This document shows positions 724-64,000 of a stretch of 64,000 bases of DNA, one piece after another. The DNA is from Amoebophrya sp. A120 (Eukaryota > Protista > Dinoflagellata). The number at the start of each line of letters is the position of its first letter. Position 1 is the first letter of the stretch. The DNA is taken from positions 999,311 through 1,063,310 of the forward strand of contig CAJINV010000001.1 of assembly GCA_905178155.1 (NCBI GenBank), read 5' to 3'. Position numbers and translations under genes: made by a program. The notes beneath the pieces are model-generated. The model worked only from the letters and a program-made list of their open reading frames with translations, was not told the origin of the DNA and did not search any database.

Positions 724-3700
724 TTACTTTGCCTTCGCGGTAGAAGTTCCAGTTCCTCCCGCGGCGGTGTGCAGCAATCGAGCGTAGATTCCTTGTTCCA
801 GTTTCGCGAGTTCGTTATGGAAGCGCCAGGATAGAAATCGCTCAAGTTGAAATGAAATAGTTTGTCATGCATAAAATGCAACGCAAAAATTGCCTCTATT
901 GCAGAGGACGCAAGGGAGGCAGATTGTAGTGCTGGGGAGGGTCGGAAATTGGGCTGGTGATTAGCATCACAGAGGGGAGTCTCTTTGCCCTAAACAGCAG
1001 CACAAACTGCCCTCCGGTACGGACAACATTTGTCATGCATCGACTAGAAACTGCGGGTCCAATTGGTATCGATTTTATGCATTACAAGTTATTCCAACTT
1101 TTTCGATTTCGATCCTGACGCCTCCATATTCGTCGTGCGTTCCGTATTCCGCGATTTTTCCCTGCGCCAACACGAAAATACAGTCCGAAGCCCGAATCGC
1201 GGACAGCTTGTGGGTATCAAATGTAAAAATGTCTGGGTCTGGAAGAATGCAACTTGTCATGCTAATTCTGAAGCATGCAAAAATCTGTGTTGCATGATTA
1301 CCAAAAGTCGTCCAGTTTTGACCAAGTCCGGAGGGAGTTTCTCATGCAGGATAGGCATGAGAGAGATCGCGCAGAATCTGTCACGCTAGGTCCTGCATTC
1401 CAGACCTCATGGGTCATGTAAAAGCTGCATGACAAATCGCGCACTCTTCCAGATCCAGACATTTTTACAGTTGATAGTGGGCCACCGTGATCGTGATCAG
1501 GCCGCGATCCCGGCTCTGCTTGCGGTCCGTAATTCTGTCGATGGCCTGCTGCACTTCGCGCTCACTTCGGTTATCTAACGCCGAAGTGGCCTCGTCCAGC
1601 AGCAAGATTTTCGGGCGGCGGAGCAACGCCCGCGCGATCGCGATCCGCTGCTTCTGCCCCCCGCTGATTTTGCTGCCCTTCACCCCCAACTTCTCTTTCG
1701 TCCAGGACAGAATGCGCCCGCCGCGCGCGTTTTTCGCAGTCGGCGCTAAATCGTGGCTCTGCGTCTCCGCCGGCGCCTCGATGTCCACGGGAGCTGCAAG
1801 TCCGGCGTGGAATAAATTCACGTCAGCCTCCTCCCACACGTCTGCCTTCTTCTTCCTTCCGCCCCGCTTGTTCAGCGAGGTCCTCGACGTTCCCTGCACC
1901 ACTTTAATCGGGGGCTCCGCGGCTAAAAAGTCCAGGCAGGCCATCTGCGCGACCCGCTGCAGCTCCTCGCGGGTGACGGTGGTCGGAGCCGGGTGGCCGT
2001 AGAGCAAGTTTTCCAAAGCGGAAAGGTCGAACACGATGGGCTCCTGCCCCACGTACCCGATTAGATTCCGCCACTTCCGGAGCTGCACTTCCAGGGAGAG
2101 ATCGTGCGCCGCGAGCGGCGTGTCTGTTGGGGTGACCAGCAAGCAACCGTTCCGCGCCGGGTCATAGTGGAGCCGGATCTCCGGCGGCGGTTTTTTAGAA
2201 CTCGCAGTTGGAGTAGTTGTGGCATTTTTATCAGTAGAAGTAGACCCCTTGATGTTTTTTATTCCGTTTGCAGCAGTTTTGATGTTTGCATCATCATCTT
2301 TTTTCGCACCAACAGGTTGTTTATTTTCTTGCTGTTCATTTTTCCCTTTATTCACATTGCCTTTCTCTTTTCCCCCGCCCGCCGCGCTTTCTACCGGCGC
2401 ACAAGAACTGGTGGGAGAAGGCAGAGTAGGACTAGGACCACCAGCAGAGGTGCTGCTACCAGTTGCGATGGGAGGTGTTGCTGGATTTATTCGACTTTTC
2501 CTCGCCTCAGCCGATCCGTCGCCAGTGTCGTCGCCGGACTTTTTTATTTTGCTGCCCTTCTTGCTGCCGACAGATTTTTTGCTGTCCTTACTCCCCGACC
2601 GAAACAGCTTGCTCTTACTCCCGGACCGGGAGAGCAGTGCCCTCTCGTCCACGATGCAGTTCGGGTCGTAGAACCGGGCAAGCAGCGCAAGGATGCTGCT
2701 TTTCCCGCTGCCCGTTGGGCCGCAGATCCCGATGCTTTGCCCCGCGGTAAAGTGGAAGTTCTGCAGGTTCCGCAGCACCTCCGTGTTCGGCCGAGTCGGG
2801 TAGCGGAATCGCACCCGGTCATACTATCCCACAGAAAAGGAACGACCATAAGGCATATTTGTATATTTATATAAGTATGCAAAACGAAATGTATACTGTA
2901 AGAAAAAACTGTCATGGTCGGGCCCATAGCGTGCTATTTAGGACAATATTCGATTTTTTTGTTTTTCTTTTTTTTGCATTTTGCACCCATTCTGTCTTTT
3001 ATTTCTGTGAGATACATACTCCACCTTACCGACCTCCGGAAACGAGACCCGGGGTTTGTCCGGCAAGTCCAGCAGCTCCAGTGGCGAGCCCCGCTTCACT
3101 TTTCCCTGCGAAGCTTCATCTACGTCGATTCTCGGCTTGCGGTCGATCACTTTGAACAGGTCGTGCGCCGCGGTGAAGGCGCGCCCGGTGTCCGGCCCGA
3201 GGTGCACCATGCGGCCCATTTCGCCGGCCAGGTTGTTCATCATGTTCACCGCCAGCGCGATGCCGGATAGCCACGTGCCGATGTACTCGTTTTTGAAAAA
3301 GTCGAACACCTGGCTCGGGGTCTGGATGTAGGTTAAGTCGTACTGTTTCACCCCCACCGAGACGAAACCAATCACGACCGCCCAATTTACCAGCGGCCCG
3401 AGGAAGCTCTGCATGCTGAAGCCGAGCCCTAGGATGACCGCGTTCTTCAGGGCGTCCGCGTCCTTATTGTCGCGGTGGGTTTTCACGCACTCTGCGTACT
3501 TCCGCGCGAACATGGGCTCCGCGCCGGACAGCGCCCGCACCGCGCGGATGTTGTACAAGCACTCGGAGGCGTAGTGCCCGGCGAGGGTGAGTTGCGGCGT
3601 CACCGCGTCCGCGGCCAGCTGCCGCATCATGCAGGCCATGATCACCCCCATGGACGCGAAGGAAACCAAAATCAGCAGCAGCATCAGCTTATCAACTGCA

Positions 3701-6700
3701 AAAATGTCTCGGTCTGGAAGATTCTGACACTTGTCATGCACGTTTTGCATGAGCCATGATGTCTGTGATGCATACCCTAGCAGTACAGATTTTTTGAGGG
3801 CTTCTTGATGCCTATTCCGCATGAAAAATGCCTTCTCAGCGTAGCAAAACGAGCACTCCCTTTGCTACTTCTGCAATACAGATTTTTTTGGAATCCAAAC
3901 GCAGCATCACAAGTTGCATTCTTCCAGTCCCAGACATTTTTGCATTTCATACAGCTTCCACTGGTTGATACAGCCCCAAACCACGGTGACCAGCAGCAGT
4001 GCGGCCGCCTGGAAGTACTATTGAAAGGAAAAACTCCCCCTCCCCATATCGAAAAGGCATGTTTCCGCGAATTTGTGTTGCTGATTTGAGGTCGCAAATC
4101 ACATTTGTCTTGCAAGAAGACAAGTGCAAAAGCTTCCGCCATATTATCGAGGCGGTTTGTCATGCCGTTGGGCCTAAAGGGAGGCCGTTTGCCATGCTGA
4201 GCAACTAGACCCATACGCCCCCAGCTAGCCGGCGAATCTGGCCGCCATGCCTTTCTGCAACACAAATTTGTGTACCCAAATCCAGCATCAGAAATTTCGT
4301 TTTGATATGGGGAGGGGGGATTTTTCCTTTTGATAAGTACAGGGCGAGATTCGGGCCGCACACGTCCGCGACGTTCTGCGTGGACTTCGACAGCAGGGTC
4401 GAAAGCTGCCCCGGCGAGTGCTCCGGGTGGTCGAAAAAGGCGAGTTCCAGCTTCAGCATCGCCCGCCAGGTCTGCTGCCTTAGGCGGTAGGTAATGTTCG
4501 CGCCCGCGAACGCCAGCGCGGCCTGGCCGCCGACCACGGCTACCGCGTTCACCACAGCGGCCACCAGCATCTTCCAGCCAGCGTCGCGGACGCCCACGTT
4601 CACCTCGGGGGCCTCCCCCTCCATCGTACTGGCTTGCTCCTGCATGGCGTCGCGGAAGAAGGTGGAGATCAGGGGACCGTTGAAGCCCTGCGCGAGGGAA
4701 AAAACCAAGGCCAGCACCAGCAGCCACCGCTCGGCGCCCTGGTTCAGCAGGAGCAAGCGGAGCCAGGGCTTCTCGTAGGTCTTCAGCACCTCCTTCTGCC
4801 GCTCCTTCTCCTTCGCCTCGTCCGACTTCACCTCGTTCAGATTCTCCATTTTTTTCTTCTCCGTCGCCTCGTCAACGACCTTCGGGAGGTGCTTGTCCAC
4901 GACCTGGGCCTCAACCTCCCGCGAGGTCTGGCGAGATGAAGCATCAAACTCGCTCGACTTCCGGGCTCGCGTGGGCTTCCCGGCGGAGGACAAGAGGGGA
5001 GACGATGATCGAAGAGACGTTTTTCCTTGTTCCTTTGTCGACAGACGAATTTTTCCCATATCTTGCTCCTCTTGCCCACCTACCCCCACTCCTGCGTCGG
5101 ACGACCGGCCTTCGCGGTCCTCTTCCAACAGGGTGGCTAACGTCGATTTCTTCGGCTTCATCTCCGGGGTCGCCCTTTGACGTTCCTCCTCAACGATCGG
5201 CGTGAGGATTAACTGCAGACTCGCGGGTGCTGTTGCCTCCTCGGGCTGTTGATGTTTCTCGTCGGTATTCAACGAGGAGGAGGACGGCGCACCATCCTCT
5301 CCTGCACCAGCTACCTCCGCAGCCTTTTCAACATCTGGCGCAACTGCAGCTGCAACGCCCCCGGCCAAGAACTCCCGCGCACTTCTACTCTCGTCGTCCG
5401 TCTCGATGGCGTGGTAGTTTGTTCCCTCCAAATAATCTGCTCGCCCGACGATTGGAGCCGCGGTCGTGCTCTGCAGGTCGTTCGCCACGGTCAACTGGTA
5501 GTACTCGCCCTGCTTTGCCACCAGCTCTTTGTGCGTGCCGGACTCGACGACGCACCCGTTTTTGAGCACGTAAATTCTGTCACTGTTCTGCACGGTGCTC
5601 AACCGGTGCGCCACCGTGATCACGGTGAGATTCTCGGACGCACAAATGCGGTCGATGGTCGCCTGCACCAGCCGCTCAGACTCGTAGTCCAGCGCAGAGG
5701 TCGCCTCGTCCAGCACCAGCAGCCCCGGGCTCCGCACCAGCGCGCGCGCGATGGAGAGCCGCTGCTTTTGCCCCCCGGAGAGTTGCGCCAAGTTCCCGCC
5801 GGACACGAAGGTGTCTAGTCCGTCTGGCAGATTCCGGACCACCTCGCCCACCTGGGCCTTGTCGCAGATTTTCAGCAGCTTTTCGTCGGACACCAGCGCC
5901 GCCTGCTCCGGCTCCATGCCGAACAGTAAATTGTCACGGACGGTGCCGTGAAAAAGCACCGGTTCCTGGGACACCCAGCCGATGTGCTGCTTCAGGTCCT
6001 CCAGGTCCAGCCCGCGTAAGTCCTTGCCGTTGTAGGAGATCGACCCCTGGTCCACGTCGTAAAACCGCGCGAGCAGCTGCAGCACCGTGCTTTTTCCCGA
6101 CCCGGACTGGCCCACCAGGGCCACCTTCTGCCCCGGTTCCACCGAAAAGGAAAAGTTCCGCAACACTTTCTGGTCAGCACCAGCACCCTCTTCTCCGGTG
6201 CTTAGTGCCTTCGTCATCATGCCAGAGGACGGCGCGTCGACATGGTCAACTACATTATCAGTCCGCCCAGCCTGATTTTCCGTTTCCTTCTCGAAGCCCA
6301 CGGGAGTTCTCGGATAACTGAAACTCACATTCTTCGCCTCCACCCGGATGCCGCCTTGGGTGAGCAACTTCTCGGAGCCGTTCTGGATTACCAAATTTTC
6401 CTCCTGGGCCAGCTCGACCACCCATAAGAGGTTCGCCAGCGCAATGCGGCCGCGGCTGTAGGCCTCGATCCAGGGGAGCAGCATGAACATCGACACCGTG
6501 GACATCATCACACCCGCAAGGCCCTGGAAGATGTCCTGCAAACCTGGAAATGACGTGGAAGACGAGGAAGATAATGTGCTATATTTTGCGTATAGCTGTG
6601 AAGTGGCTCCTGTGGTGCGCCCACTACTCTATTAATGCAGCTCGAGTAATACTGAATTATAAAGCGAGGACTGCTATGCACGAGGGAGCAGCAGCCCAGT

Positions 6701-8339
6701 TACTTCTTATTATCAAAATTTATACCGTAATTGACGCCGAACAGTGTGAAGGTGCCGTCCGCGTGCAGCAAGTAGAGCCCGGCGAACACGAAGGTCAGCG
6801 CGAAGGACACCTGGAAGCCAAAGAAAATGAGCGCGAAGCCGAAGGCTTTCGTGACGCCGATCCGTTTTTGCTCGGTGCGGGCGTCGTCAAGCAAACCTGC
6901 GTAGCGCGCCGCGGTCTCCTCTTGCGCGTTGCACGCATGCACCGTGCGGATGTTCGCGAGAGACTCCTCCACGATCACGCCCGCCTGTTCGTAATTCGGA
7001 ACGGTTTTGGACAGTCCCGCGCGCGTATGAGAGTGCACAACTCCCCCTCCCTCTCTACTTTTGTCATGCAAAATACCAAATTCACCGTTTGCCTCTTGGC
7101 AACTTTTGCATGACAGGTTCATCTGGTAGATCAAACAACACTACAATCCTGGGTGAAATTGTCATGGAAAACCCGCATTCTCGCCGACGCTTGTATTTTT
7201 GCTGCTCATGCAACACAAATGAGGGGGAGGGGAAAAGGTTGTGCATTTTCATAGCGCGCGACCCGGATGTACATGGACATGCCGATGGCGACAAAGGACA
7301 CCATTGGGATGGCGACGAAGGCCATCGGCCAGCAGGCGAACACGGTGTAGCCGAGGCCGCCCACTAGCATGAAGATGTATGGATTGTAAAAATGTCTGGG
7401 TCTGGAAGATTTTGAGATTTGTCATGCTTGTCTGGCATGACCAAAAAGTTTGTGATGCGTGTCCAAGAAGAGGCCCTTTTGCCTGTCATGCGAAAACGCA
7501 GTTTGTCATGCGAAAAACGCAACAGCAAGAAGCGCAGATATTTCTCATGCTTGCCTGTGCATTACAGAGCACTCACCATTCCCAACGCTGCATTACAAGT
7601 TTCCAGACCCAGACATTTTTGCAGTTGATAAGATGGAAGCCACCGCCATTTGCAGCTTCATGCCGACCACCTCGGTGAGGTTCCCGATGTCCTCGTTTAG
7701 TCGGGTGGGGACCAGCAGCGCATTTTCCTTGTCGAACCAGCCCATGTCGAGCAGCAAGACGCTGCTGAAGTAGGCGCTGCGCCACTGGTAGCTGAGACTC
7801 TCGTTCGCCAGCCGCAGGTTCAGGGACGCGACGAAGCCGAACACGGTCGCGCCGAGGGCGAACACGAGGAACCAAAACAGCTTCGACCACAGCCGCGCGC
7901 CGATGTCGTCCGCCTCCGCGGTCTTCCAGGCCTCCATCGCGACACTGAGGGGCTCGGGCGGCTGAATCACCGGGACCTGCACCCTCCACAGCTCGGTCAT
8001 CGTGGCGAACCCGATAATCATGGGGGACGCCTGGCACAGGCCCTGCAGCAGCGCCCCGAGGCACCCGCACCACAGCATGCGGCGTTCCTTGGCGGTGGCA
8101 AACTTGAAAAAGCTTCCCAGCTTGATCTCCTCGGGATCGATCTTCCGAACCTTGTGATGATGCTTGGTCTTGGTCTCCTTCGCAAGCTGGTCAAAATTTT
8201 GACCAGTAGACCGATTTTCAACATCGTCCTCGGTCTCATCCAGAACGCCGACGGCGGTGTCTGCAACGGCGTCCAGCAGCGGCAGGGTCTCGTCATTTTC
8301 GCCTATCGTGGGCAAGTAGCTCCTGAGGACAGAGGACAT
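724..8339 (-). CDS. ABCB/MDR-type full-length ABC transporter (TMD-NBD-TMD-NBD), spliced
   Basis: Walker A motifs GQSGSGKS and GPTGSGKS, signatures LSGGQKQR and ISGGQKQR, Walker [11 protein letters not shown] in both NBDs. Removing 7 TIR introns plus a GT-AG intron (~6544-6726) gives continuous ...TVAHKLSAIR...[18 protein letters not shown]...; stop TAA at 724-726. Confidence 0.93.
816..1128. mobile_element. TIR introner (singleton type)
   Basis: TIR TATGGA(A/G)GCG(C/T)CAGGAT; DR TTCGT; removal gives GTHDE|LAKL. Confidence 0.9.
1215..1476. mobile_element. TIR introner family A
   Basis: TIR TATCAAATGTAAAAATGTCTGGGTCTGGAAG; DR GTGGG; removal gives TVAH|KLS. Confidence 0.95.
2825..3014. mobile_element. 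TIR introner (short TIR, AT-rich, old)
   Basis: TIR TATC(C/T)CACAGAAA; DR CATAC; removal gives KVEY|DRVRF. Confidence 0.85.
3690..3951. mobile_element. TIR introner family A
   Basis: Family A TIRs; DR CAGCT. Confidence 0.95.
4019..4335. mobile_element. TIR introner family B
   Basis: TIR TATYRAAAGGAAAAA...CCCCCTCCCCATATC; DR AGTAC. Confidence 0.95.
7026..7253. mobile_element. TIR introner family C
   Basis: TIR TATGARARTGCACAAC...CCCCCTC; DR GCGCG. Confidence 0.9.
7378..7630. mobile_element. TIR introner family A
   Basis: Family A TIRs; DR AGATG. Confidence 0.95.
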
Positions 8340-9249
8340 GATCTAGTACCTAGATGCCTGGAAAATGTAGATATAGAAAGAGTAGCCAAGGTTAAAGAAA
8401 CTCAGCAATCAAAATCTAAGACTGTGTTTAAAACTTATCGTCCCGACGTAAGTCGTTTCACTTTATTTTGATGGAAATGCATAAAAAATAAACCACAACG
8501 GTATAACAACAATGATATGCAACCAGTAATGCTTTCTTTGACATAAACGAGACACCTTTCACTTGCCGCCACAGAATCACCGTGCCAAGATCTGTCAAAA
8601 ATCAAAAGAAAAATAGAGTTTGGCTACCGAAAAAAACTTGACAAGAAGCCGACCTCCAACAGGCACTTCGGTTCCATTTCGGCTTCAGGTTTCTTCCAAA
8701 TGCAAATTGAAACATCAAATACAAATTTCCCGAACATGTACATTGGATCATCGGAATTTTGCGAGCACAATAGTTTGGATCATCGCAAGGAGTCGTGTTT
8801 AAAAATCTGTTTCACAAGAAACCACACGCATCCGACACCAGTGCGACCACCGATCTATCTTCTTGATCCTCTTCACATTGCGCAAAGCAAATGGAATCTT
8901 CTGTAAGTACCACGCCGATGCTGCGAGCAGATGAACGGAAAGGTAATTGAATAAAATAGACTTACTCCTGACCAGCACTACTTGCTCCGAGATGAAGATC
9001 CGTTTTGTTGGTGGAAACAAAATGTTTCTTGAAAAGGAAGGAACATGGGCACGTCCCTTGCTGCTTGCGAGGCTAGCCAGGAAAACCAGCTATGAACGTG
9101 GCGACCACGCGTGCAGCATGTAATGGTAATGAATTTAGAACACCATCCTCCCACGTAAGCGGTTTTTTCGTTTGTTTCAAATATGCGGTTTCTGGTCCAA
9201 TGTTCTGACTTTCAAACTCCTATATACTGCTTATGCGGCACTTCGGCTT

Positions 9250-12200
9250 CTAAAAGTCGGTGAAAATGGTTCTCAACCCTCCGCCAATCGCAGCTAGCAA
9301 GCGGCGCTTTTCTTGCCAGAACACCCGCTTTTTCTCGGCCGCGGTCAGCGGGCCGGGTGGCAAAGGGAAGGACGCCGTGTGCCCATTGTAGGAGTACCGC
9401 ACGGCTGGCTGCCCTTCAACACCGTCACCGTCTTCAAGTAGATCTCCCTCGTGCAGAAGTTGTTGTCCTTGATGTAGTCCTCTTCTACCTACGTCAGAAG
9501 TGGTTGCTGTCCTAGTACCACCAAAAATTTTACTACTATTCCCAGCGCTGCTCTCCTGCACCACAATCCGCAGGGGCAACGTGGAAGAACTTCCTTCCCC
9601 GGTGTCGTCGTCGAAAAAAGCAGCAGAGCTCTTCGCCAATTCGTCGTACAGAAACCCGGGTGGTAAGGCGACTTCCAAGAAGACCCGAGATGCAGTTGCA
9701 GCACAACTTGGAGCTGCATGCTTGTTCGAAGATCCTGTCATCTGGAGGGTGCTGCCAATGGACGCAGTTCCTGTAGAAGTACTAACGCTAGTACCAAACG
9801 CACCAGTCGGAGGTGGTGAAAAACTCGATGAGGATGAAAACTTCTCCTCGACCACCTCTGAACTTCGCAAAGCCCCAGAAAAGGCCCGAGGAGGCGGAAA
9901 TTTCGGTGCTGACGCGGAGTTCTCCTCAGCTTGCTGTACCTCCTCAATAGCCCCGGGGGTTTGAGTACTTCTAAATGAACTGCCCGCTGATGCTTCTCCT
10001 CCTCCTCCCGGTGCTATGTTCATGCCCGGATGAATACTGCTGGAGGCCGTGCTGTTCGTGCTATCGGCGGGCGACGCCGCGTGGAAAGGCTCTTTTTGCT
10101 CGGAACAAAGCGGTTCTGAAACTATTCCGCCGGCTGGCGCTTCCTCCTCTGGTTTGGTGCTGGACGCCATGATTCTTGCGGGCGGCGGTGGACCGACTTT
10201 CGGAAGTTCTTCGCTACCTGGAGGAGGTACTATTGGCTCAGCAGTTCTTGGCCCTTCTTGTTCACTATGCTGCGTTGAACTCGTAGTTGCGACCATTTCA
10301 ACACCTTGTTGCGAACTTCGTTCTCCGTTGCCACCAGCTGCCCCACCACTCGGTGCTGATGTACTATCAACAACCCTCGACGATGAAGCAGGTTCCTGCT
10401 CGACGCTTCTACTGGTAGAAGTACTAGTTCGACTTTCCTCCTTGGCCCCCGCCACAACTTGAACTTTCCGTGCGCCAAACTGCGTGAGCAAAAAATTTTC
10501 CGCGGCTTCCGGCTGCACCCGGCGCACGTTGCTGGTCCCTCGTGGTTTTTCTTCAGCAAGATCATTTCTTTCCAAATCCAACTCCTCCTCCCCCGACATC
10601 CACCGCAGCACTACCACTTCCTCGATTTGCAAACTGTGCTTGAAGCACCGCAGCACGTCGGGCCAATCCGAAAAGGTGCGCGTAAAGGTTTTCGAACTTA
10701 TTGCAGCTTTACTGCCACTGGCTTGATGTCCGGCTTCTGGTTCTTCTTGCAGTCCTCGTCCAGCTGAGCTACAATTGTCCTGCACTCCCGACGGAACCAT
10801 CGTGGTGACGAGGCAGATCTTGTCGCCGACCCGGAACCCCAAGCTCGCCGCGAACTTGGACACGCGGCGGCTTTGCTATGGATTGCAAAAATGTCTGGGT
10901 CTGGAAACTTGTAATGCTAAAAAGGAATGATAGACGCACTGCAATACGCAGCTTGCTATGCATGACAATTTTTTTGGCTGCCATGTGTTACGTATTCCGC
11001 ATCGCAAACTGCGTTTTTGCATGACAAGTAAGAATGCCGCTTCGTGCGTATGCAACACAAACTCTCGAGTCATCCCAGACAAGCATGACAAACTTCAATT
11101 CTTCCAGACCCAGACATATTCGCAATTCATATTTGCCGCGTCGTGCCCATGATGTCCATGCCCCAGCTGGTCTGCGTCGTTTCGCGCTGCAGCTTCAGCT
11201 ATCCTGTGAAAAAGTATCGCACTCGTACTAATTGCAGATATGCATGACAAATCCAACTTTCTACCTGAAATAGCATGACAAATTGCATTTTTGTTCTTGG
11301 GAAAATTTGTAATGCAATTTATACTAGTACGATAGTTTTGCAATGCATATCAGCACCCGGAGCGCCACCTGCTTCTTGGCCGAGACGTCGAGCATGCGCA
11401 TGTAGTGCACCTGCAGCATATCGGCCCGCTCCGGCATCCGCTTCACGTGGGTCAGCAGGTCCTGCGGTTCCAACAAGCCGCCGCGCATGGACGGCAGCAC
11501 CAGTCGCTCGCACCCGGGCACCACCGTCACAACTTGCTGCTCCAGCTGCTGTCTCCCATGCAAATCCTGGGTACACGTCTTCAGCACTTCGCGCAGCACT
11601 TATTACGATGAAAAATGCCCCCACCCCGGAATTTTCAGAAGTTTGTCATGCAAAGCTTCCAAATGAAAGCTTTTTGTCTTGCATAAAAGGATTGCGAGCG
11701 TTCCTGATACAGAATCTGGGTGCTCAAGGCGCCTTGTGTATAACAGATCCAGCTGCTGTTGGGCTACTTCGAAACACAAATTTGACCTCTTCAGCATGGA
11801 AAATTTGTGATGCTGAGATATGCAAGACGGGGAATGTTTCTGTTGGAAAGGTTTGCAATACAAATGCTGCCAAGCTGGGGCATTTTTCATTGTAATAGCA
11901 CTTTTTCGGGCAAGAAATCGACCCGATCCACCACGACTGCGGCGTTGGTGCCGACATTGTACACGTTGGGGCGGTGCAGAATCAGATTGATCACTTTTTC
12001 CCGGCCGAACACCTGCAAGATCCTTTCGGGGTCCGTTTCCCCGTTCGCGACGCGGATCACGTCATCCTTCTGCGGTCGGAACGGCTGCAACCGGGCATGC
12101 GCCTCGTTCCACCGAAAAAGTGCCTTGTCGCTGTAAATTTCCGCCATGAACAGCCGTGGGGTCCGGCTACTGCTCCCCTGAGGACCCGACTTCAGCTGCA

Positions 12201-15200: not shown

Positions 15201-16007
15201 GCATGGCCAGTGAGAGCAGTAGATTTTGTGCTCCGCGGAGATGGCATTTGTCATGCGGAATAGGCATGAGGAAGCGCTCTGCAAATCCGTGATGCTAGGC
15301 CATGCATTACAGGCATTATGGATCATGCAAAATATGCATGACAAATCTTGCAATCTCCCAGACCCAGACATTTTTGCATTTGATATGTCCAGCCGGGAGG
15401 TGCCGTGAAAGACGTGGAGCAGCACGAATTTCTCGCTGTGCTTTGATTCGAAATCGAGGAGCTGTTTCACGGTCGTGATGACCAGATCCGCCTTATTCGG
15501 ATCCGGCCGCCGAGGCTGCCGGGAAGACGGGCCTGGAGTGGAGGTTTGATTTCTTGTTTGCGCAAAAATTATTTGACAAAACAATCGAAGACGAAAGAAC
15601 CATGGAAAAACTACTTCCTTGCATTTATTGTGTCTGGGAGTTCATCTACTTCAACGTACAAATATTATTTTGAAAAGAAAAATCCAATGAGTAGTACTCT
15701 GCGTCTGCACCCCCCGGTCGTACAGTCTTCGCCTGTTCGGGTCGCGCAACACATCGTATGCTTCCTTCACCTGCAAAAATTCCGTGTCGGAGCCCTTTTT
15801 GTCCGGATGCGCTTCCAGAGACCGTTGGCGGAATGCGCGCTTGATCTCTGCCGCAGTCGCGGACCGGTTGATGCCAAGTACGTCGTAAAGGTTTGCCGTT
15901 GCGGCCACTGCATAAGTAGTACCGACTCCAAGAACGTTGAGCAATGCTAGGAGCGTCACCGCGATCCCCAGAAAACCAGTTTGTCGCCACAGTAGAAACA
16001 CAGACAT
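9250..16007 (-). CDS. DnaJ-domain membrane protein (signal peptide, J-domain, thioredoxin-like region, TM helix, PDZ-like segments, low-complexity tail), spliced
   Basis: J-domain LYDVLGINRSATAAEIKRAFRQRSLEAHPDK with HPD motif; TM segment FFVLVCTILFFAI. Frame is continuous across the TIR introns checked (8 in the gene). Thioredoxin and PDZ calls are pattern-based and tentative. Confidence 0.75.
10877..11131. mobile_element. TIR introner family A
   Basis: Family A TIRs; DR TTTGC. Confidence 0.95.
11200..11349. mobile_element. TIR introner (shortest, 150 bp)
   Basis: TAT...ATA ends, imperfect TIR; DR TCAGC; frame restored. Confidence 0.85.
11601..11897. mobile_element. TIR introner family B-like
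   Basis: TIR TATTACRATGAAAAATGCCCC; DR GCACT. Confidence 0.92.
12352..12623. mobile_element. TIR introner family A
   Basis: Family A TIRs; DR AAAAA. Confidence 0.93.
12755..13036. mobile_element. TIR introner family D
   Basis: TIR TATCCTG....AAACGTCCCCASCCCATA; DR ACAAA. Confidence 0.95.
14121..14381. mobile_element. TIR introner family A
   Basis: Family A TIRs; DR TCCGC/CCCGC (synonymous mismatch). Confidence 0.93.
14673..15077. mobile_element. TIR introner family B with nested 71-bp insert
   Basis: DR TCGGA; body similar to 59889-60199; insert 14725-14795 lies between 12-bp repeats. Confidence 0.93.
15123..15385. mobile_element. TIR introner family A
   Basis: Family A TIRs; DR TGTCC. 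Confidence 0.95.
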
Positions 16008-50735: not shown

Positions 50736-51297
50736 TGTATCCTGTCCTCTCAACTACCCGATAACTCTACCCCGAGCAACTGCCAATGCGGGGGTCTTCG
50801 AAATAAACGAGTAGTTGTAACAGTTGATTGTTGCGGGACGACCACACAAACTTGCAATGTGTTTTGAAAAAGGCAAGGAAAACGAAACAGTTGGATCTTC
50901 TGTCAGATCCCGGTTGATCGATCAGTGCGTCAACATAAGCACAGAAAAAATAAAGCACACTAAAAACGGCTCACAGAAGAGAACAACCTTGCCGCTTCAT
51001 CTTTATTGCCACCGTGCTTGCACTAGTTCCAAATTCCATAACCGAAAATGAGGTTAAAATGCAGAGCAGCTCACTGTACCCCTACGTGCTGCGCGGAAAA
51101 ATCCTTTCAGTCAGATCTTTAGATGTCGCGTCAAATGAGCCGCATTTCGAAACAACTCGTGAGGTCTTTAGATGTAAAGTTGTGCGCCAGTCGAGGTCTC
51201 GCTTTATTTTCCTAAATGATGAATGAGAACTTGCGATCAACAATGCCAAAGCGCGTCTTTTTCCACAAATATCAAAATCTGCTTTGTTATCCTATTT

Positions 51298-54277
51298 TCA
51301 CCACGTTCGCTTCCTTCGCCGCGCCGACTTCCGGTGTTTCGGAAGGGTAGCCGTCCGCCGGAGGGTTTCCCCCGACAGGCTGCTGGCCCGCCGCATCTCG
51401 TTTGGTAGGACCGTGCCGACAAAGGTCTCCAGCTCGTCGTACTGAACATGCAGACGCTGCAGTGCCTGCGACAGCTGCAGCGCTTCGAAGGGGGAGAAGT
51501 GGGACGCGACGTCCAAGTCGCGTCGCAGTTGTTGGACAAGCAGGTGGAGCAGGGGAGGGTGGGAAAACTGCACCTTGCCCATGGCATTTATGTACTTCAA
51601 AATATCGGCGGTGGACAGGAGCTGATCATCGTCTCGTCGTCCACCCGAAGCGGGTGGTAAAAATGCCGTTTCCGCCGCCCCGTACTGGCTGGTGCTGGCC
51701 GATGCTGAACCAGTACTACTACTAGAGAGCTGCTGTCCTCGTGGTCTCTCCTCGTAGCTATCTGCAGTTCCTGTGTTACCTCCGAGTGAAGGCGAACACA
51801 CAGCACGGCCTCGTCCGGGAGGCAGCCGCTGGAGTTGTAGTACACATCGGGAATGTAGCAAGTCTGCGATGCCCCGCAACAACTCCTCCTCGCAAACGTG
51901 GACCTTTCCGTATGCCTGGGCGACATTGACCCAGTCGGCCGTAGACACGAAGGTAAACTGGTTCCCGGATTATCGAATGCAAATAATGTGGCTGGGAAGT
52001 CCTCGTGTGGAAACTTCTGATGCTGAAATGCGGATGAGATCCCAGCTCTTGCAGCCAAGCATGACACGTTTTTGGACCGCTTTCTGATGCCCGGTACGCA
52101 TCACAGATTGCGCTTTCGCACGAGAAAGCAAGTGACTCTTTTGCTGCTCGTGCGTCTTTCATGAATGGAACACATGCATTTACAAGTTCCAACCCTGCAC
52201 ACCCTGAAATATTTGCAGCTGATACGGAAAACTCTTCCACCAAGTCCTCCAGCTCCTCTTCTTTCCGTTCCGCGGCCGTCCGTGTCTGCGCGGCCCGCCG
52301 GCGCAGCTTCCGCAACCCCTTCTGACTCTGGCACGGATCATCTTCCTGAGCAAAATTTATTCGAGTAGACAGGGTCGCGGAAAAGACGTCAGAGTCGGCG
52401 TGTCGTGATGGGGATGAGGATGCCCCGTCGGACAGTACGGTTTGCCCCTCCTGCGGCAGGAAGGAGCGGAACACGGGCCCGAAGTACTCCTTGAATAACT
52501 TCTCGTCCTTCACCTGGAACTTTGCCAGCCCCATCGCCAGATTCAGCACATGCTGGAAGGAGCAGTGGGAATTTCGAATCCCCTCCAGCATCCCGCGAGC
52601 CGCGTCCTGTTGCTTCACGCGCGCGCAAAGGCGCGCAATCAACACTTCGTTGACGACGCCGGCGCGGGCGAACGAGGTGATGGTCTGGCTCATAGCCGGA
52701 ATGTCGAACGCGTGAAGGTGCCGCCGAATCAGAATGCCCAAGCGGTCGAACACGTCCGTCGCGTGTTGCGACACACGAAACTTTGCAAAACCGTACGCGA
52801 GCTTAGATAACACGGTCGGAACGGCGGCCACGTCCCACACAGAACAACTCGTTGCACGAGGCTCGGTTTTGTTGTTCGTCGCACTGCTGGCAAAAGTACT
52901 TCTTGGTTTTCTGTTTCCCAGTAATGCCCCGTGATCGCTCCAAAGAAACCGATGCGCTTTCCCCCCGTACTGCGGGATGCAGAACGTCTCGCAGCTTTCC
53001 AGAAAGGCGGTGGGGTCCGCGAAATCTCGCAGACGGCACGCCACCCTATCTAACGCACCGCCGTCTTCTACCCGAAGTTTAGCCAACGCGTGCACCAGCT
53101 TCGCGCACTCGGGGACGGACAACCCTGTACAGTCTCGGAACCCGCCACGGAGAACACCATCGCGGAAAAGCCGCAGCACAGTGTTGAGCTGCAACACGGC
53201 CTCGTTATCTTTATGCGTTTCTCCGACAATCCGCTGCAGCTCGGCCAATCCCACGCAGGCATCCGCAATCTGCACCCGGTCCGCCTCGGTCCAGGTGGTT
53301 GTTGCGATTACGTTTTTCAGCCAGGGTATGTCGAAGAGCTCGGAGAAAATTTCCAGATTCGCACGTTCCGGATGTAGATTTCTTGTTTTATTCCGGTGTA
53401 AGGAATCCAAGCATCCTGCTTTCCTTTTCCAGTTCGAATACAGGGCGAAAACCTCGCTCCAAAACAAGGACGCTACTGCCGATGCGGAGGAAGAAGCGCC
53501 AGCGTCGGTCGCATTGGTGCAATTTACAGCATGTTGTAAGAACTGTTTGCGCATGAACCCCTCGCCCAGGGTCGTATCATACAAAGAAAGCCGGACGCAG
53601 TGAGCCCAAAAGTCAATTCCGAACTGCTGGCTCATCTCGGCCGCGTCTGGATCATTGACAAGCGAATCTTGCACCTTCAGCACCTGACAGTATGTGAGTG
53701 TAGTAGAAATTGCGGTGTAACTGATCGCGCCTCATCGTGAATACGTTAGAAGAACCTGATGAAAACGCACGCGTATACGTACCTGGTTGAAGAAGTGCAA
53801 GTAGGACTCCGCGCTCACTCCACTTTTGTCCCACTGTAGTGTCACAAGTAGAAAGTGCAGTCCCGCCCTGGCGTCGTATGCCGATGTGAAAAAAAGTTCG
53901 CGGAACCGACCCTGCAGCTTCTTCCAAAACGATTGATCTATCACTCCGGCCTTGTTTCCCGCGTGTGCCTCCCGCGCAAGCTGGGCGACGTTTTTGATTT
54001 CGCTAGGCAGCGTAGCTATGAACTGGTCCACACGGGAGGCGGGGTTTGCTGGCGTAGCCGTCGCTTGCCTGGACGAAGCCAAGCTCCGGTGCCCCGCTCC
54101 GGCCTTTGCGCCCGTCTCCTCGCAGCGGTGCTGCTTTGCAGCTTCCCTCGCCTGCAAGTAGCGAAGGTACTCCACTGCATCGCGACGGGCTTCGGGGGTG
54201 ACATGTGCCGCTGTACTAAAGTTACGGCGCCTCCACGGCATGCGGCCACGCGCTGCGGCGCGATGTCTCTGCAACAT
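51298..54277 (-). CDS. Helical-repeat (HPR/OPR/RAP-associated-like) organellar RNA-binding protein with putative mitochondrial presequence
   Basis: Repeated units LSKLAYGFAKF, MSQTITSFARAGV, VLNLAMGLAKFQVKDEKLF, WVNVAQAYGKV and ILKYINAMGKV; Arg-rich N-terminus ending RRNFST; one GT-AG intron (~53686-53781) and one TIR intron. Confidence 0.65.
51971..52224. mobile_element. TIR introner family A-like (diverged)
   Basis: Ends TATCGAATGCAAATA / TATCAGCTGCAAATA; DR CGGAT/CGGAA; removal gives EEFS|GNQFTFVSTADW. Confidence 0.85.
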
Positions 54278-55337: not shown

Positions 55338-58300
55338 TCAAAAGCCCTTCTTCGCGGAATCCAAAATGCAATCGCAGTCGTCGCCGGTCTTCTTGCTGAC
55401 CATTTTGTTGGACTTGCTATCCAGGATGCAGTCGCAGTCGTCCTTCTTTTTCTGCGCCTTCTCTTTCTGCACCACCATGGCCACGGTCTTCGAGGGTTGC
55501 TTGGAATCCAAAATGCAATCGCAGTCGTCTCCGGTCTTCTTGCTGACCATCTTGTTCGACTTGCTATCCAAAATGCAGTCACAGTATCCTGATTGAAAAC
55601 GTCCCCACACCAGAGCTCAAGATGGGAATTCTGCTAGACAAATCACACAGCTTTGGTTGTTTGGCATGACAGGTTTATTTCCCTCGTAGTGTGATCCTGT
55701 TTAGCTAGCTCAGAAGCATCACAGATCTAGCATAGCATGCTGATATCAGCATGACAAATCCCAAAACACGATTAGCAAATGCTTCTCACAGGGCTCCGCA
55801 TGAGAAACCATTTTGGCATGCAGAATTGCATGACAACTCTGGGGTGAGGATGTTTTTTCACGGGATACGCAGTCGTCCTTCTTCTGCTTCCTCGCCAGCA
55901 GTGGCTTTTTCTCCGCTGGCTTGCTCGGCGTGGCGCGATATGCATTGCAAATGTCGATCTGGGTCATGTCGCAGATCATATCTTTGCGAGATCATTAGTC
56001 ATGCCGGTCTGGCGTGAAGAGGACTCCGAGTTTTGTATTCCGTGGCTTCCTCGAAGAAATCTGTTGTTGCCTGTCCTGCAAATAAAGAACGTTCAACTAC
56101 ATTTCCGCAGCGTTTTTTGCTGACCAATCCCTGATTTATGCAACATCACAGAGCTTTTCCGAGCAGGACCCAGATGAACTATTTACACTTGATACGCGGA
56201 CCTGCAGGAAGGACTCCTCGTCCGAGCTGAGGATCTCCAGCGCGTCCTTCAACCCCGCGATCTCGGCCTCGCGCCGCTTCTGGCGCTCCTCGTAGCTCAT
56301 CGCCTTGTTGGCGCAGGCCTCCATGACCCCCTTCAAAAAGTCCGTGGCCGCCTGCAGCGCCTTGTTGGCCTCGGTTAAATCCTCGGACATCATGCCGATG
56401 CTCTCCTTCACGCCCGCCTTCTCCTGCGTCTTGCCCTTCACCTCGGCCTCCTTGGTGGCTTTCGCGACCTGGGACTCCTGCATAAACTTCTCATACTTCT
56501 CCACCGCGTCCGACTCTGCAGCCTCCGTCTCCTGCTTCAGCTTCTCAAAGTCCTCCTGGGCGGTCTCCAGAATGCTGATGATGGTGTTCGCGGCGTCGGT
56601 CTGCGGCTGCTGCAGAAAGCTGGTGCTCTTGCCGTAGAACTCGGACAAGGCGGTGATGGCACCGTTGATGGCCTCGACGGACTCAGCACTGTCCTTGATC
56701 ACCGCGTCATTCTCCTTCTTTTCCTATCAAATGCAAAACTACTGTCTGGTTCCGGAAAGTTGCAGTGCTCGAAGGCGTACTAGATGCTCAGCAAACTGCA
56801 ATATTACCCGACCAAGCATGACAAGTTTATGAGCTTCTGCGCTGTGGTGCGCATAATTCCGCATGGCAAGATGCGCAAGACCGGCAAGACGGTGCTTTAT
56901 TCGTGCATTTATTGCACCAAAGAACTCAAAGTCGTGTGAAATGAGCATGAGAAATTATTCGCTATCTTCCAGACCACCAAGACATGCTTTATTGCAATGC
57001 ATATTTCCTTCCCACGGATGGCCGTGCGCTCCTTGACGTCCGCGGCTAGCTCGGCCAACTGCGCCTCCAAATCGCTGATCTCCGTGCCCAGCTGCGCGAA
57101 CTTGGCCTCGGCGGCGTCGACCCGGCTCTGCAGCTTCTTGGACTCGCCCTTGCGGAGCTTCAGGTCCTTGGTGCCCTTCTCCTTGTCGGCCTTGCACTTG
57201 GCCTCCTTGGAAGCCTCCTTCGCCGCCTCGTCTTCCAACTTTGTGATCATCTCCTTAATCATGCCACGTACCTTCACAAACGGGTCGGCCTGGGCGCTGT
57301 TGGCGGCCTGGATCAGCGCAAATTGGTTGTAGGTGCGCCCCAGTCGGCGGAGCATCAGGCTCACCTTCGCGCGCTTCTGCGTCTCCTCGGAACCAACCTC
57401 GTCGGAAATCTGAAATTATAACCAAAGGGATTTTTATATGGTGGAAGCGAATTGCGATTAGAACTTCCCACAGGTAAAAAAAAAATTTTAAATTCAAATG
57501 CAATGAGCATGCCGTGGGTCTAATCTTCATGCCCTATCATCATATGCAGCGTCTGAAAAAAATGAGGAAGATGTAAATCGCAACACTTTATGACCGCAGT
57601 GATCGCTCAACGTGGTCTGTCAGATAAATTTCCAATACCTGCAAGAAGGATTCGCCGCCGAACTTGCCACTGAGGATCTCGATCGCCTGCCCGAGGGCGC
57701 CGGACTCCTGGGTGGCTTCCTCCTTCCGTGCGGCCCAGCTCTTGGCCTTGGAGTCGCACTCGGCCTTGGTGTTGGCCAGCTCCTCCGTGTCGGACTTCAG
57801 CACTTCCTCGGCGGACGCGAGGTCGCCGCCCGCGGTCTTACCCGCGGCCTCGGCCTTGGCCGCGTTCTCCTTGGCTGCTTCCATTTGTTCGGTTTTGCTG
57901 GTCTCCTGATTCTTCAAATCCTGCATCAGCAGCTCAAACTCGTGGCGGGCCTTGAGATCTTTTTCCCGAATACCAGCCAGAACCTCGGCGTTCTTCTCCT
58001 GCATGCCCTGAATCGCGTCCAAAGTTTATGGAGATGAACAAAACTGCCTCTTCGATAAGAAAGGAAGAGATTCTTTAGATTTGCCAATATTTTGTTTCCG
58101 AACTTCTTCATTATTCAATGCGAGAACAAAAGTTCATCGTTGGTCTCTCGTGTTGAACAAGGAAAACTACTCATGTTAATTTTAAAATACAACCCGCAAG
58201 ACAAAAGATTTCGCAACTATTATAACAGTTCCGTGGGTGATGTAGTTCTCGTTAAACTTAAAAGCAGTTGTTTTCAGTCGCATAGAATTCCGCCGGACTT

Positions 58301-60214
58301 GCTCTGGTAGCTGGACGACACTGCTTGCGGCTGGCCCAGTATGGCATTCTCAACCGTTACACTCTGAACTGTCACATGAATTTGTCACGCAAGACTACCT
58401 TAAGCCGCCAGATGATCAAGCGGCTTCGCATGACAAATCCCCGAGAAGCGAAGCAGCATCCAAGTCTGTGCCAAATCTGTGATGCGAAAGCAGCAAGCTT
58501 GCCCTACTTTTGGCTGTTGCTGTTCTTGCATCACAAATTCATGGAACAGTTGAGAATGCAACAGTTGAGAACGCCATACCCAGACGGAGCTCGTTCGACT
58601 CCTCCAGGAACGCCTTGATCTTTTGTTGGCTCTCCGCGTCCATCGCAACTGACTCGATGATGGTGGACAGTGCCGTGACGGCGTTCTGGGCTTCCCGAAC
58701 CGCCTTGCTGGACGCGATTCCGTCCGTCTGCGTGAAGGACAGGGATCGCTTCAGGACGGAGTATGCCTTCTGCAGCATGGTGTCGGCCTCCACTAGCTCC
58801 GCCTCTTCCTTTTGAAACGTCGCGTGGGCCTCCTTGCGTTTTCTATGCAGGGAAAATCCAACGACAATAAAAGTCATGCCGAACTGTAGCATGTGCCTTA
58901 ATCAACTCGAAGTAGAGTATACTACGCCTCATTATCATTTGATCCAGATTGTTCTGCTTACAGCTAGTGCTCCGCCCACGCACAAAGACCATGCGGTGCA
59001 GAATACACTTGTATCTCTATGCCGTTGGATTTCATTTTTCCCTTTGCGTACTCATCAGCAGCCTTTGTTTGCTCGCCCTGCAGTGTGGCAATCTCCGGAG
59101 TCAAAGTAGCAACCTGGAGGGAGAGTTGATGATGAGACTTTTAGATTTACAGCTGTTGGCACTCACTGTACTGCAAGTAGATCGTCGTAATTTCTTGCCC
59201 GATAATCATCCATCTCTTTCTGCTACATGTTTTTTATTCTGACAATCACAGTAGTTCTAGTTTCAATAGTACTACTTATATGCTGTTTCACTTTTTATTT
59301 CCCTATGAATAAAACTAGCGCAAAATAAATCTCAAGACCTCGTTCGCGAAGCCGGAGGCCTTTGCTGCTTCGTTCTCCACAGTTGCTTTTAACTCCTCAA
59401 CCTTCTCCCCGCCGTACTTCACGTCCGCTTCTCCTTCCGTGGTCGTTTTGATGCACCAATTCTCGAATTCCTCGGCCTCTTTGTCGCCGTCGGTAATTTC
59501 CTGTTCCACCTTCGTCTTCATGTCCGTGAGTAGAGAAATCACTTTTTTGATGCCGCTGTTGCCCGTATGGATTGCAAAAATGTCTGGGTCTGGAAGATTG
59601 CAACTTGTCATGCTAAATCCGACTCATGCAAAAATCTGTGTTGCATGAGTGCAAAAAGCTGCCCACTTTCGGCCAACTTGGGAGGGAGTTTCTCATGCAG
59701 GATAGGCATGAAAGAGACCTCGCAAGCTCTGTCATGCTAGGTCCCGCATTCCAGACCTCAAGGGCCATGGAAAACCTGCATGACAAGTTCACACTCTTCC
59801 AGACCCAGACATTTTTACATTTGATAGCCCGCTTCCGCCCGACTTTTCAGCGCGACCACGGCGCCCGTCGCGCCGGACGCGACGAGAATATCAAAATGAA
59901 AAATCCCCCCTCCCCATATCAAAACGGAAATCTGTGATGCAGATTTGTTGTCACAAATCAGCTTTGTAATGCTACACGGGAAAAGATGCGGACTGTAGTG
60001 CTGGGTGGCGTGGGGAAGCCTTGCATGTTCAGCATGATAGGAGGCAGCTGGGAGTGGGAAACAGCATGACAAATTGCCTGCAAATGAGGCCACGACTGCG
60101 GCTCTTGGCCTTCTAGCATGACAAGTCGATTTGTGACCTCAAATACAGCATCACAAATTTCGTTTTCGATATGGGGAGGGGGGATTTTTCCTTTCGATAG
60201 AGAACACGACGCAT
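55338..60214 (-). CDS. Secreted coiled-coil protein (dinoflagellate 'SFLQ'-type) with Cys-repeat C-terminal tail, spliced
   Basis: MRRVLVASGATGAVVA...SGIKKVISLLTDMK...FENWC, QPQAVSSSYQSKSGGILD, ADPFVKVRGMIKEMI, SYEERQKRREAEIAGLKDALEILS and several SFLQ motifs; 7 TIR introns plus GT-AG introns. Confidence 0.8.
55355..55584 (-). repeat. Coding tandem repeats encoding DDCDCILDS(K) units
   Basis: Four CDCILDS units and two KSNKMVSKKTGDD linkers. Confidence 0.9.
55585..55867. mobile_element. TIR introner family D
   Basis: DR CACAG/CGCAG (TGT/TGC, synonymous). Confidence 0.92.
55939..56194. mobile_element. TIR introner family A-like (diverged)
   Basis: DR CGCGA/CGCGG (synonymous); frame restored. 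Confidence 0.85.
56725..57003. mobile_element. TIR introner family A-like (diverged)
   Basis: TATCAAATGCAA...TTGCAATGCATA; DR TTTCC. Confidence 0.88.
58027..58284. mobile_element. TIR introner (highly decayed)
   Basis: Ends TATGGAGATGAACAAAACTG / TATGCGACTGAAAACAACTG; DR AAGTT/GAATT; removal gives SGGI|LDAI. Confidence 0.7.
58340..58578. mobile_element. TIR introner (singleton type)
   Basis: TIR TATGGCRTTCTCAAC; DR CCCAG; removal gives LRLG|QPQA. Confidence 0.9.
59566..59826. mobile_element. TIR introner family A
   Basis: Family A TIRs; DR GCCCG. Confidence 0.95.
59889..60199. mobile_element. TIR introner family B
   Basis: DR GAGAA; inserted after the fifth codon of the gene. Confidence 0.95.
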
Positions 60215-62573: not shown

Positions 62574-64000
62574 TCACGGAGACTTGCTGTCTTCCCGACC
62601 GAACCAGCGTTTCACTGTGGTCGCAACGGTGTTCAGCACCGTAGCCGCCCCGGCCGGTTCCGTCGTGTCGCCCTTTGCGATATGCATTGCAAATATGTCT
62701 GGACGTCTGGAGAGATGCAGTTTGTCATGCGAACTTTCGATCAAATAAAAAAAAAATCTGTGTTGCGTAGAAGCCAAAAGTTTTTTGCACACTTGTTGCT
62801 AATTATAGCAACAGGCGTGTTTCTCATCAAATGGCGTAGGCATTAGGAAGGTCATCTCGCGAATTTATCTGCGAAGATGCTTCTGCGTGCAATAGAGACA
62901 AGCCGGTTGTAGTTGTTCGCTTGGATGCATGACGAATAGTCCTGAGATCTTTCAGACCCAGACATATTTGCAGTTGATACGCAAGCTCTGGACCCCAGGT
63001 TGCATGGTTTTGGATCAGCTCCACGATCTCAAAATGCCCTTCGCACCTGCAGATTTAGAAAAATATGTTGCAATCATGTGAGATGGCGCTCGAAGAGCTA
63101 CATACTGGACAAAAATTAGATGCAAACGACCAAAATTTTTATATGAGTTCATGCACGTCCGCTGCAACACGGTGGCGGTGCCACCCAACATTCTTCACAA
63201 CCACAAGACAAGTGCCTCTTTCCTGACCACACGGAAACAGAACATACTTCGCCAGGTCCAGGCAGGTTTGCGCGCCGCGGTCCTTGCAAAGCACGAGTCT
63301 TTTGGTGCAGTGCTTGTGGTTCATCAGAAACTGTACGATGTCCATGAATCCCTTTTCGCAGGCGGCGTGCAGGCAGCTTGTGCCGTACTTAGTTTGCGCG
63401 TTTATCAGGTGAGGTGGAAAATGCTTGTGGTCCAGTAGGTACTCCACGATGTTGGTGTGTCCCGCCTCGCAAGCCGAAAACAAGCATGTTGCGTGGTACA
63501 CATTGAGCGAATGCGTGATCAGTTCCTGAAATTGGAAATAAGGTTCTCTTGTCTTTTCGAAGGTCTCCTAGAAAAAGTTCTTGCTCCGAGGGAGTGATGT
63601 AAAAAAACGGTGGAAGTCATGAGACTCATCATTTTTTGATTGTTTGGGTATTAAGCACTACTGAACAAAGCCAAATAAACCTGTCACAAAATAAACGTCA
63701 GAGATGAATCTTCTACAACGCACCTTTCTCTTCCCGGTGTTGTCGTTTGTGGTGCAGAAATTCATCAACGATTCGACGACGTTCAAGTGGCCCTCGCTGC
63801 AGGCGAGCTGCAGACAGGTCATGTCCTGTTTGTTCTTGGAGAAGAGTAGGTTGTACTTTTCGGCCGCGGGTGACTTCACCAGGTATTCCACAATTAGCAA
63901 ATGCCCCTCGGCCGCCGCCACGTGCAGGCAAGTGTCCCCGAGATTGTTGCGGTACATCACCAGCTATCAAATGCAAATATGTCTGGGTCTGGATCTAGAA
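62574..64000 (-). CDS. Ankyrin-repeat protein (3' part; continues beyond window)
   Basis: Ankyrin motifs GDTCLHVAAAEGHLLIVEYLV, TCLQLACSEGHLNVVESL and GTSCLHAACEKGFMDIVQFL. Confidence 0.85.
62681..62979. mobile_element. TIR introner family A
   Basis: DR TGCGA/CGCAA (both mismatches synonymous). Confidence 0.88.
63965..64000. mobile_element. TIR introner family A, left end only
   Basis: TATCAAATGCAAATATGTCTGGGTCTGG; truncated by the window edge. Confidence 0.85.

Follow-up and report, generated by a model that had tools for sequence, protein, structure and literature searches.

Non-coding inverted-repeat elements with 5-bp target duplications interrupt coding exons of Amoebophrya sp. A120 and are likely cut from transcripts at a fixed offset

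Repeated introns with non-canonical borders have been described in the dinoflagellate Amoebophrya sp. A120, and the elements analysed here belong to this already known system. Farhat et al. (2021, PMC7789003; this and the other papers are cited from their accessible text) reported more than 60% non-canonical introns, 29,850 repeated introns in A120, inverted repeats of 8-20 nt and direct repeats of 3-5 nt, 5-bp direct repeats in the legend of Fig. S19 and, in section 11, A120 inverted-repeat motifs consisting of TAT, seven less-conserved bases and then at least three A. Among the small nuclear RNAs (snRNAs), U2, U4, U5 and U6 were found in A120 and U1 was not detected (PMC7789003); U1 is present in a strain with GT-AG introns (PMC12005148). 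Gozashti et al. (2025, PMC12130899) distinguished 58 A120 introner families, most of them terminal inverted repeat (TIR) DNA elements of unknown superfamily, 150-320 bp long and with mixed splice dinucleotides; their family 38 combines TIRs with Copia/Gypsy-like open reading frames (ORFs), and A120 introner families show integrase-like homology. We analysed a window of 64,000 nucleotides from A120 (GenBank assembly GCA_905178155.1, contig CAJINV010000001.1, positions 999,311 to 1,063,310 of the forward strand; coordinates below count from its first letter). An earlier note, made from these letters alone, had described TIR-bounded, non-GT-AG introns with TAT...ATA ends and a 5-bp direct repeat, and had presented the shared end rule as the new part; that rule is already in section 11 and the Fig. 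S19 legend of Farhat et al. (PMC7789003). Its reading of these elements as non-GT-AG Amoebophrya introners that leave as element plus one repeat is supported. Our search, with subscription journals mostly outside its scope, yielded no paper settling the excision mechanism or the cut position, and none of the papers found explains the removal of tens of thousands of such introns from A120 transcripts.

A primary scan of the window for N5-TAT...ATA-N5, with lengths limited to 700 bp, returned 40 pairs, 32 of which reached the threshold of at least 12 paired bases among the 20 terminal ones. Thirty block-wise dinucleotide shuffles gave 0-6 pairs each, and terminal pairing at this threshold occurred in none of 29 shuffles and once in the remaining one. 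Relaxed scans, homology to other loci and curation extended the list to 47 complete TIR elements, which total 13,166 bases or 21% of the window, and one further element truncated by the window end (63965-64000). Core clustering of 42 window elements resolved five multi-copy groups (15, 7, 3, 3 and 2 copies) and 12 unclustered elements. The total of 47 is close to the 45 elements first counted. The elements are short, bounded by TIRs of 20-36 nt that are able to pair, flanked by a fixed target duplication and devoid of coding capacity, as is typical of miniature inverted-repeat transposable elements (MITEs). Element 1215..1476 folds into a single long hairpin (z -9.8). A Rfam search of the window gave no matches.

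Of the 43 elements curated first, all but one have TAT...ATA ends (42), the exception at 40749 carrying TAC, as noted earlier; the transcript 5' end is TAT in all 43. A is found at element positions 11, 12 and 13 in 38, 41 and 41 of the 43, in agreement with the published TAT + 7 + AAA motif. The 5-bp repeat is exact in 35 of the 43 and has one or two mismatches in the other eight.

Removal of each element together with one 5-bp repeat copy (element+5) opened long reading frames, every one of them on the minus strand: frames of 1,511, 1,388 and 4,506 codons arose upon removal of 5, 8 and 14 elements, respectively, where the longest raw frames in the same spans were 807, 541 and 1,205 codons. 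For the ABC transporter gene at the left end of the window, a profile built on 78 ABCB homologues served to compare six in-frame lengths, element+5 among them, and nearby GT/GC-AG alternatives. Element+5 scored top of the six in-frame lengths at six of the seven junctions, the exception being 3690, and surpassed the best nearby GT/GC-AG alternative at six of seven, the exception being 2825, where linker trimming scores higher. The two ABC junctions singled out in the earlier note, which join TVAH to KLS and GTHDE to LAKL, are both correct and align without gaps.

Deposited proteins cover further junctions. The best match of an exon query, identical at 100%, was a protein of 762 aa that carries the label Amoebophrya sp. 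A120, followed by an A25 protein at 85%, and two further A120-labelled deposited proteins match other window exons at 100% identity. These proteins join at element+5 at all 13 covered junctions (eight in P0121, four in P0241 and one in P0243; the 23706 junction was assigned by reading the mapped peptide). Ordinary GT-AG introns lie beside element junctions at 57410-57638, at 29351-29569 and near 59110-59337, as had been pointed out for the same genes. A120 gene models were built from assembled transcripts since standard predictors failed (Farhat 2021, PMC7789003), and the deposited proteins are therefore indirect RNA evidence. They suggest, by this indirect route, that the elements are absent from mRNA and that their borders are non-canonical.

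Where the two repeat copies are identical, the cut position within them is hidden; it is revealed by imperfect repeats, which flank about one fifth of the elements. At 35705 positions 3 and 5 distinguish the copies, non-synonymously in each case, and P0243 is reproduced solely if the cuts lie at -2/+3 or -1/+4, counted from TAT and ATA. At 58027 and 58844, deposited and homologous residues rule out the three upstream-most registers: Ile is found in all 18 aligned sequences having residues at the former site, and the two closest homologues have E-R-K at the latter. One locus would acquire a stop in register 1. At the SNF2 locus described below, alignments to solved structures ended before the informative residue. 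Together these sites indicate that the cut likely has a fixed offset, 1-2 nt upstream of TAT on one side and 3-4 nt downstream of ATA on the other. We regard the fixed offset as likely rather than shown because one site is decisive and is taken from a gene model, with 58027 and 58844 consistent. In register -1/+4 every intron would begin N-T-A-T. T at +2 is common to all nine of the predominant A120 motifs that Farhat et al. list in Table S4 (PMC7789003), which, given the aligner bias of these motifs, is compatible only. The deposited model at 58844 joins at element+5 and bypasses an in-frame GT-AG option that adds a residue missing in homologues. At this old element (58844-59050) the drifted repeat copies now supply GT and AG, in registers three bases apart; it may show an element on its way to becoming a canonical intron. 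A donor consensus from 78 predicted GT-AG introns was not used, the predictions being unreliable and one of them conflicting with a deposited model.

A second data set was obtained by scanning metagenome contigs with the family A end motif, which returned at least 148 loci (605 kb); the loci among the matches listed, L001-L148, all come from one record series, and the same scan of viral contigs gave no match. Elements of the listed loci are up to 97.7% identical to window families, and the loci have no window gene in common. Pairing of ends without a repeat rule gave 386 pairs from the listed loci and, for 35 of them, the window, duplicates from overlapping loci included. Of these, 351 end in TAT..ATA and three in TGT..ATA; the direct repeat is an exact 5 bp in 304 (79%), 4 bp in two and 6 or 7 bp in none. 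The 5-bp flanking repeat of the earlier note is thus real, and its strictness is not. After de-duplication and strand calling by a coding model, 160 locus elements passed and 333 were scored in all. In 202 oriented elements, repeat mismatches at positions 1 to 5 numbered 11, 8, 8, 9 and 9. No position is free of mismatches, and identity of the two copies is not what is read. Together with the 18 of 34 mismatches that are non-synonymous (16 are synonymous), this speaks against the proposal of a machine reading the 5-nt repeat. The observed synonymous share of 0.47 is close to the 0.447 expected for one free copy and departs from the 0.288 expected for two (p=0.023), a test that is supportive only because the reading frames came from the same coding model. 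An excess of mismatches at position 5, present in 5 of 8 imperfect window elements, was discarded since the 160 locus elements are flat (10, 7, 6, 7, 4). At L013:6209-7735 an element lies inside a SNF2-family helicase, directly after a conserved motif; as this gene is interrupted, essential genes carry elements too.

Element orientation relative to the transcript was unbiased in the eight families with at least four copies (34:37, 18:10, 11:10, 5:10, 8:5, 5:5, 2:4 and 3:3; none significant), and therefore an oriented internal signal is not needed. Since the ends are mirror copies, the RNA has the same termini in either orientation. GT-AG borders were available in some register in 12 of 205 elements, against 13.3 in shuffles, that is at chance, and in the window in 1 of 43 (element 39697); the statement that no register gives GT...AG is not absolute. 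Beyond the ends, most families share the motif TGTSATGC, their cores being otherwise unrelated. It occurs 112 times in the window, 110 times within elements, often 33-48 bases from each element end and pointing inward. In the listed loci 882 occurrences lie within called elements and 438 beyond them; many of these calls are cut short, and the exact motif is absent from 36 of 330 elements.

Altogether, coding exons of the window are interrupted, in either orientation, by TIR elements that are non-coding and flanked by a target duplication of 5 bp. Their anatomy supports well an origin as MITEs of one transposase making 5-bp duplications, the enzyme itself being inferred. They are very probably removed at the RNA level. 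That a modified, U1-less spliceosome removes them from pre-mRNA, at the likely fixed offset, is the reading we favour, at even odds. Under this proposal one DDE transposase, probably integrase-like, would mobilise every family, reading the shared end TAT-S-N6-AAA and the internal TGTSATGC and leaving 5-bp duplications, and the mirror-copy ends would give the RNA equal termini whatever the orientation of insertion. A cut one base before TAT would create the intron start N-U-A-U, donor-like and with an invariant U at +2, while on the 3' side a U-run would precede ATA by 11-15 bases. Pairing in the terminal stem would bring the ends close to each other, and the 3' cut would be measured from the stem with no need for AG. 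One repeat copy's worth leaves with the intron, and the coding sequence is therefore restored. In a bolder form, which we put forward tentatively and would sooner doubt than accept, this would amount to a U1-free and AG-free code: the symmetric transposon end would give both signals, one offset would serve all families (one base before TAT and four after ATA), a transposon-derived protein on TGTSATGC would possibly mark the intron, and any element of this transposase would be a perfect intron wherever and whichever way round it inserted.

Several observations weigh against this interpretation. The offset hangs on one decisive gene model, and -1/+4 begins with GT there, which an aligner may have favoured. 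A codon-usage register test favoured the upstream copy in 13 of 18 cases at positions 2-5 and in 2 of 6 at position 1, without adding to the case for the offset. Farhat et al. found no A120 transposase; their Fig. 3 legend calls the position of splice sites with respect to the hairpin variable, and they describe the intron borders relative to it as unknown (PMC7789003). Across 205 elements, neither GT nor AG was enriched at target sites in any register, and an initial hint of G enrichment before TAT was not replicated. A transcript-strand signature of RNA pairing was absent in 193 elements (145 G.U against 143 A.C), and sense-strand folds were lower in 104 of 187 (p=0.14). In 97 A-type copies, pairing at positions 4, 5 and 7 is at chance level, yet these positions keep restricted bases. 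The ends therefore look conserved because their sequence is read, whether by a transposase or by a splicing factor, more than through selection for pairing. Finally, inspection by eye of the 11 copies longer than 420 bp in the listed loci (605 kb) and the window revealed no autonomous copy or transposase-like ORF.

The strongest alternative accepts the same transposon origin and RNA-level removal but assigns the latter to a non-spliceosomal endonuclease and ligase, or to a domesticated transposase-like protein, measuring from the terminal stem, as is suspected for euglenid nonconventional introns. It corresponds to the second splicing route of the earlier note and is a real possibility, with somewhat less than even prospects. 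Dispensable canonical dinucleotides at both ends, freedom of orientation and the strong whole-element hairpin (z -9.8, element 1215) suit such a machinery, and the internal motif common to most families could be the binding site of a dedicated protein. The longer 3' overhang resembles the Euglena rule, with cuts 3 nt before and 5-6 nt after the paired motif (PMC12501133), and euglenid introns exit as circles (PMC11282704). However, selection for RNA pairing is not seen, the narrowed cut gives a donor-like N-U-A-U start, the loss of U1 with other snRNAs retained fits an altered spliceosome (PMC7789003), and MITE introns removed by the spliceosome have a precedent in tunicates (PMC11282704). From the narrowed cut position we lean slightly to a modified spliceosome over a second splicing route.

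The mismatch counts bear on another alternative, a cut that floats within the 5-bp repeat and varies from molecule to molecule, the repeat guiding the joining of exons by spliceosomal or other means. The variable splice positions relative to the hairpin reported by Farhat et al. (PMC7789003) and the 79% of exact repeats would suit it, but recent insertion alone yields exact repeats. Moreover, both copies would be under constraint if the cut floated, but non-synonymous changes make up 18 of the 34 mismatches, which affect all five positions, and the registers indicated by the three informative sites concur. We consider it improbable.

Precise excision from DNA in an expressing stage, similar to programmed DNA elimination, appears more unlikely still. 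TIRs and target duplications are the anatomy of DNA transposons, and strand asymmetry was lacking in all tests, as expected of a double-stranded substrate. Cut-and-paste transposition, however, normally leaves both repeat copies behind, and a germline/soma split is not known from this parasite. The earlier suggestion of DNA excision is also at odds with two independent assemblies, the window's and that of the metagenome loci, which hold the elements in DNA at similar density (no locus sampled being shared), whereas the element-free gene models are transcript-built and introns were validated by RNA-seq against DNA assemblies (PMC7789003). That the host genes no longer function, or use neighbouring GT-AG sites whose splicing changes the protein, is extremely improbable and largely refuted: stop-free GT/GC-AG alternatives do exist near all seven ABC junctions and the one at 2825 scores higher on the profile, but conserved motifs align ungapped at element+5, 13 of 13 deposited junctions fall there and the 58844 model avoids its in-frame GT-AG option.

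The elements of the window, listed without a strand, are distributed over the families as follows. Family A1 comprises 1215..1476 (repeat exact), 3690..3951 (orientation opposite to 1215), 12352..12623, 14121..14381 (repeat mismatch at position 5, synonymous), 15123..15385, 18420..18844 (with an internal insert), 20514..20771, 23706..23970, 31070..31734 (with an internal insert of ~400 bp, without long ORF), 34499..34813, 39152..39417, 39697..39966 (alone in offering a GT-AG register), 41131..41391, 45231..45491 and 59566..59826. Family A2 is represented by 7378..7630, 10877..11131 and 26811..27062, and family B1 by 4019..4335, 40749..41074 (TAC end) and 48134..48452. Family B2 includes 14673..15077, a longer copy, and 59889..60199; 11601..11897 has B-like ends. 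To family C belong 12755..13036, 17258..17566, 35705..36023 (mismatches at 3 and 5), 38464..38742, 38803..39078 (position 5, synonymous), 41450..41723 (position 4, synonymous) and 55585..55867 (position 4, synonymous). A-type ends characterize 17671..17935, 30121..30389, 51971..52224 and 55939..56194 (each with a mismatch at position 1), 56725..57003, 62681..62979 (mismatches at 2 and 5) and the partial element 63965..64000, of which the window edge leaves the end only. The elements at 17258, 17671 and 18420 lie inside a TauE/SafE gene. Unclustered are 816..1128 and 2825..3014, both with exact repeats, and 58340..58578. The element 7026..7253 has the same ends as 33746..33982, whose repeat is imperfect at position 2; 11200..11349 is of a 150-bp type and 20815..21024 of a 210-bp family. 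An older element, 37624..37811, has a repeat mismatched at three positions; at 58027..58284 the mismatches are at 3 and 5, and homologues show the upstream copy to be exonic at position 3. The old degenerate element 58844..59050 reads TAC...ATA on the minus strand, and its repeat differs at four of five positions.

The copies 31070-31734, 18420-18844, 14673-15077 and 34499-34813 are enlarged by internal inserts or duplications and still have exact repeats; as three of them sit in rescued frames, the element core tolerates change. Three candidates were dropped: removal of 53327-53440 disrupts a 651-codon frame, and 16590-16806 and 47349-47730 have weak inverted repeats and do not rescue a frame. 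The 16590-16806 sequence has an exact 5-bp repeat and a family-C-like end and lies outside long frames, possibly as a decayed element in an untranslated region. At 25187-25270 there is a spacer-free inverted repeat of 42 bp that is not of the TAT type.

Host genes and frames were delimited on the minus strand. The ABCB/MDR-type transporter gene (727..8342) contains seven elements and one GT-AG intron near 6544-6725 (bounds approximate); the window's own protein was absent among the 120 matches listed for its exons. A 1,388-codon stop-free frame (9253..15641) results from removal of eight elements, its raw pieces lacking a Pfam match; upstream of it, a short minus-strand exon at 15700-15900 carries an HPDK motif and presumably resembles a DnaJ domain. 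The gene of the 2,433-aa deposited protein P0241 (22505..32769) is joined at element+5 at 31070, 30121, 26811 and 23706 and has the GT-AG intron 29351-29569. The 4,506-codon stop-free frame (25542..43326), from which 14 elements were removed, is split by the annotation into more than one model; its raw pieces have no Pfam match, its homologues are A120 models only, and the annotation continues past 25785 through another intron. The gene of P0121 (55341..60214; 762 aa, PF27870 precomputed) has eight element+5 junctions and two GT-AG introns. Its protein ends in a C-terminal extension of DDCDCILDSK-like repeat units (55341-55600) that is absent from aligned homologues. On the minus strand of 62600-64000, exons that by eye resemble ankyrin repeats are accompanied by GT-AG introns and two elements. 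Pfam searches of 30 raw pieces named the ABC transporter and the TauE/SafE protein, and most pieces had no match.

Existing RNA-seq could map the register genome-wide through imperfect repeats. If they hold, the fixed offset and the invariant U at +2 would indicate a rewired spliceosome, and independence of orientation and site would explain how exons were invaded at low cost.

Compared with known systems, canonical U2 introns are set apart by their GT...AG ends, which the A120 elements show at chance level only. Euglenid nonconventional introns (PMC12501133) and hemistasiid diplonemid introns (PMC12621601) share with them the coexistence of non-GT-AG and canonical introns, ends joined by pairing and an offset cut. 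Their motif (CDG/CH'G, with a purine at the exon start) and spacing are different, however, their lineage is unrelated and, in the accessible text, they follow no fixed 5-bp duplication rule; the A120 elements in turn depart from the N3-CDG...CH'G-N5-6 rule, with TAT/ATA ends and flanks without a strong purine rule. MITE introns of Fritillaria borealis (review PMC11282704) likewise combine TIRs and target duplications with non-canonical ends and species-specific positions, but AG-AC/AG-AT predominate there and the target site gives the 3' signal, whereas A120 target sites look unselected. Ginger/TDD transposons (PMC2836005) are TIR elements with an integrase-like enzyme, TDD-4 and TDD-5 making 5-bp duplications; Ginger has TGTNR ends and mostly 4-bp duplications, whereas the A120 elements have TAT ends (351 of 386 pairs with TAT..ATA, three with TGT..ATA) and no enzyme was found here. 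Within A120, the families of Gozashti et al. have duplication lengths scattered over 2-6 (32 of 58 rows), while 5 is near-universal among the window elements, and family 38 has ORFs, while the window is without an autonomous copy. The A120 introners of Farhat et al. are the same system: the strain label on 100%-identical proteins, the TAT+7+AAA repeats, the direct repeats, the families and singletons and the co-oriented genes all agree, and we see no difference in kind from what their accessible text describes. Here the repeat is 5 in nearly all families (3-5 in the paper), the inverted repeats reach 20-36 nt (8-20 in the paper) and the cut is brought down to two registers, where the paper leaves the border unknown. 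Orientation independence and the shared internal motif were observed here and not found in the searched text of that paper. The narrowed cut, the orientation independence, a repeat that is not read by identity and the shared TGTSATGC are thus what the present analysis adds to the A120 introners in print.

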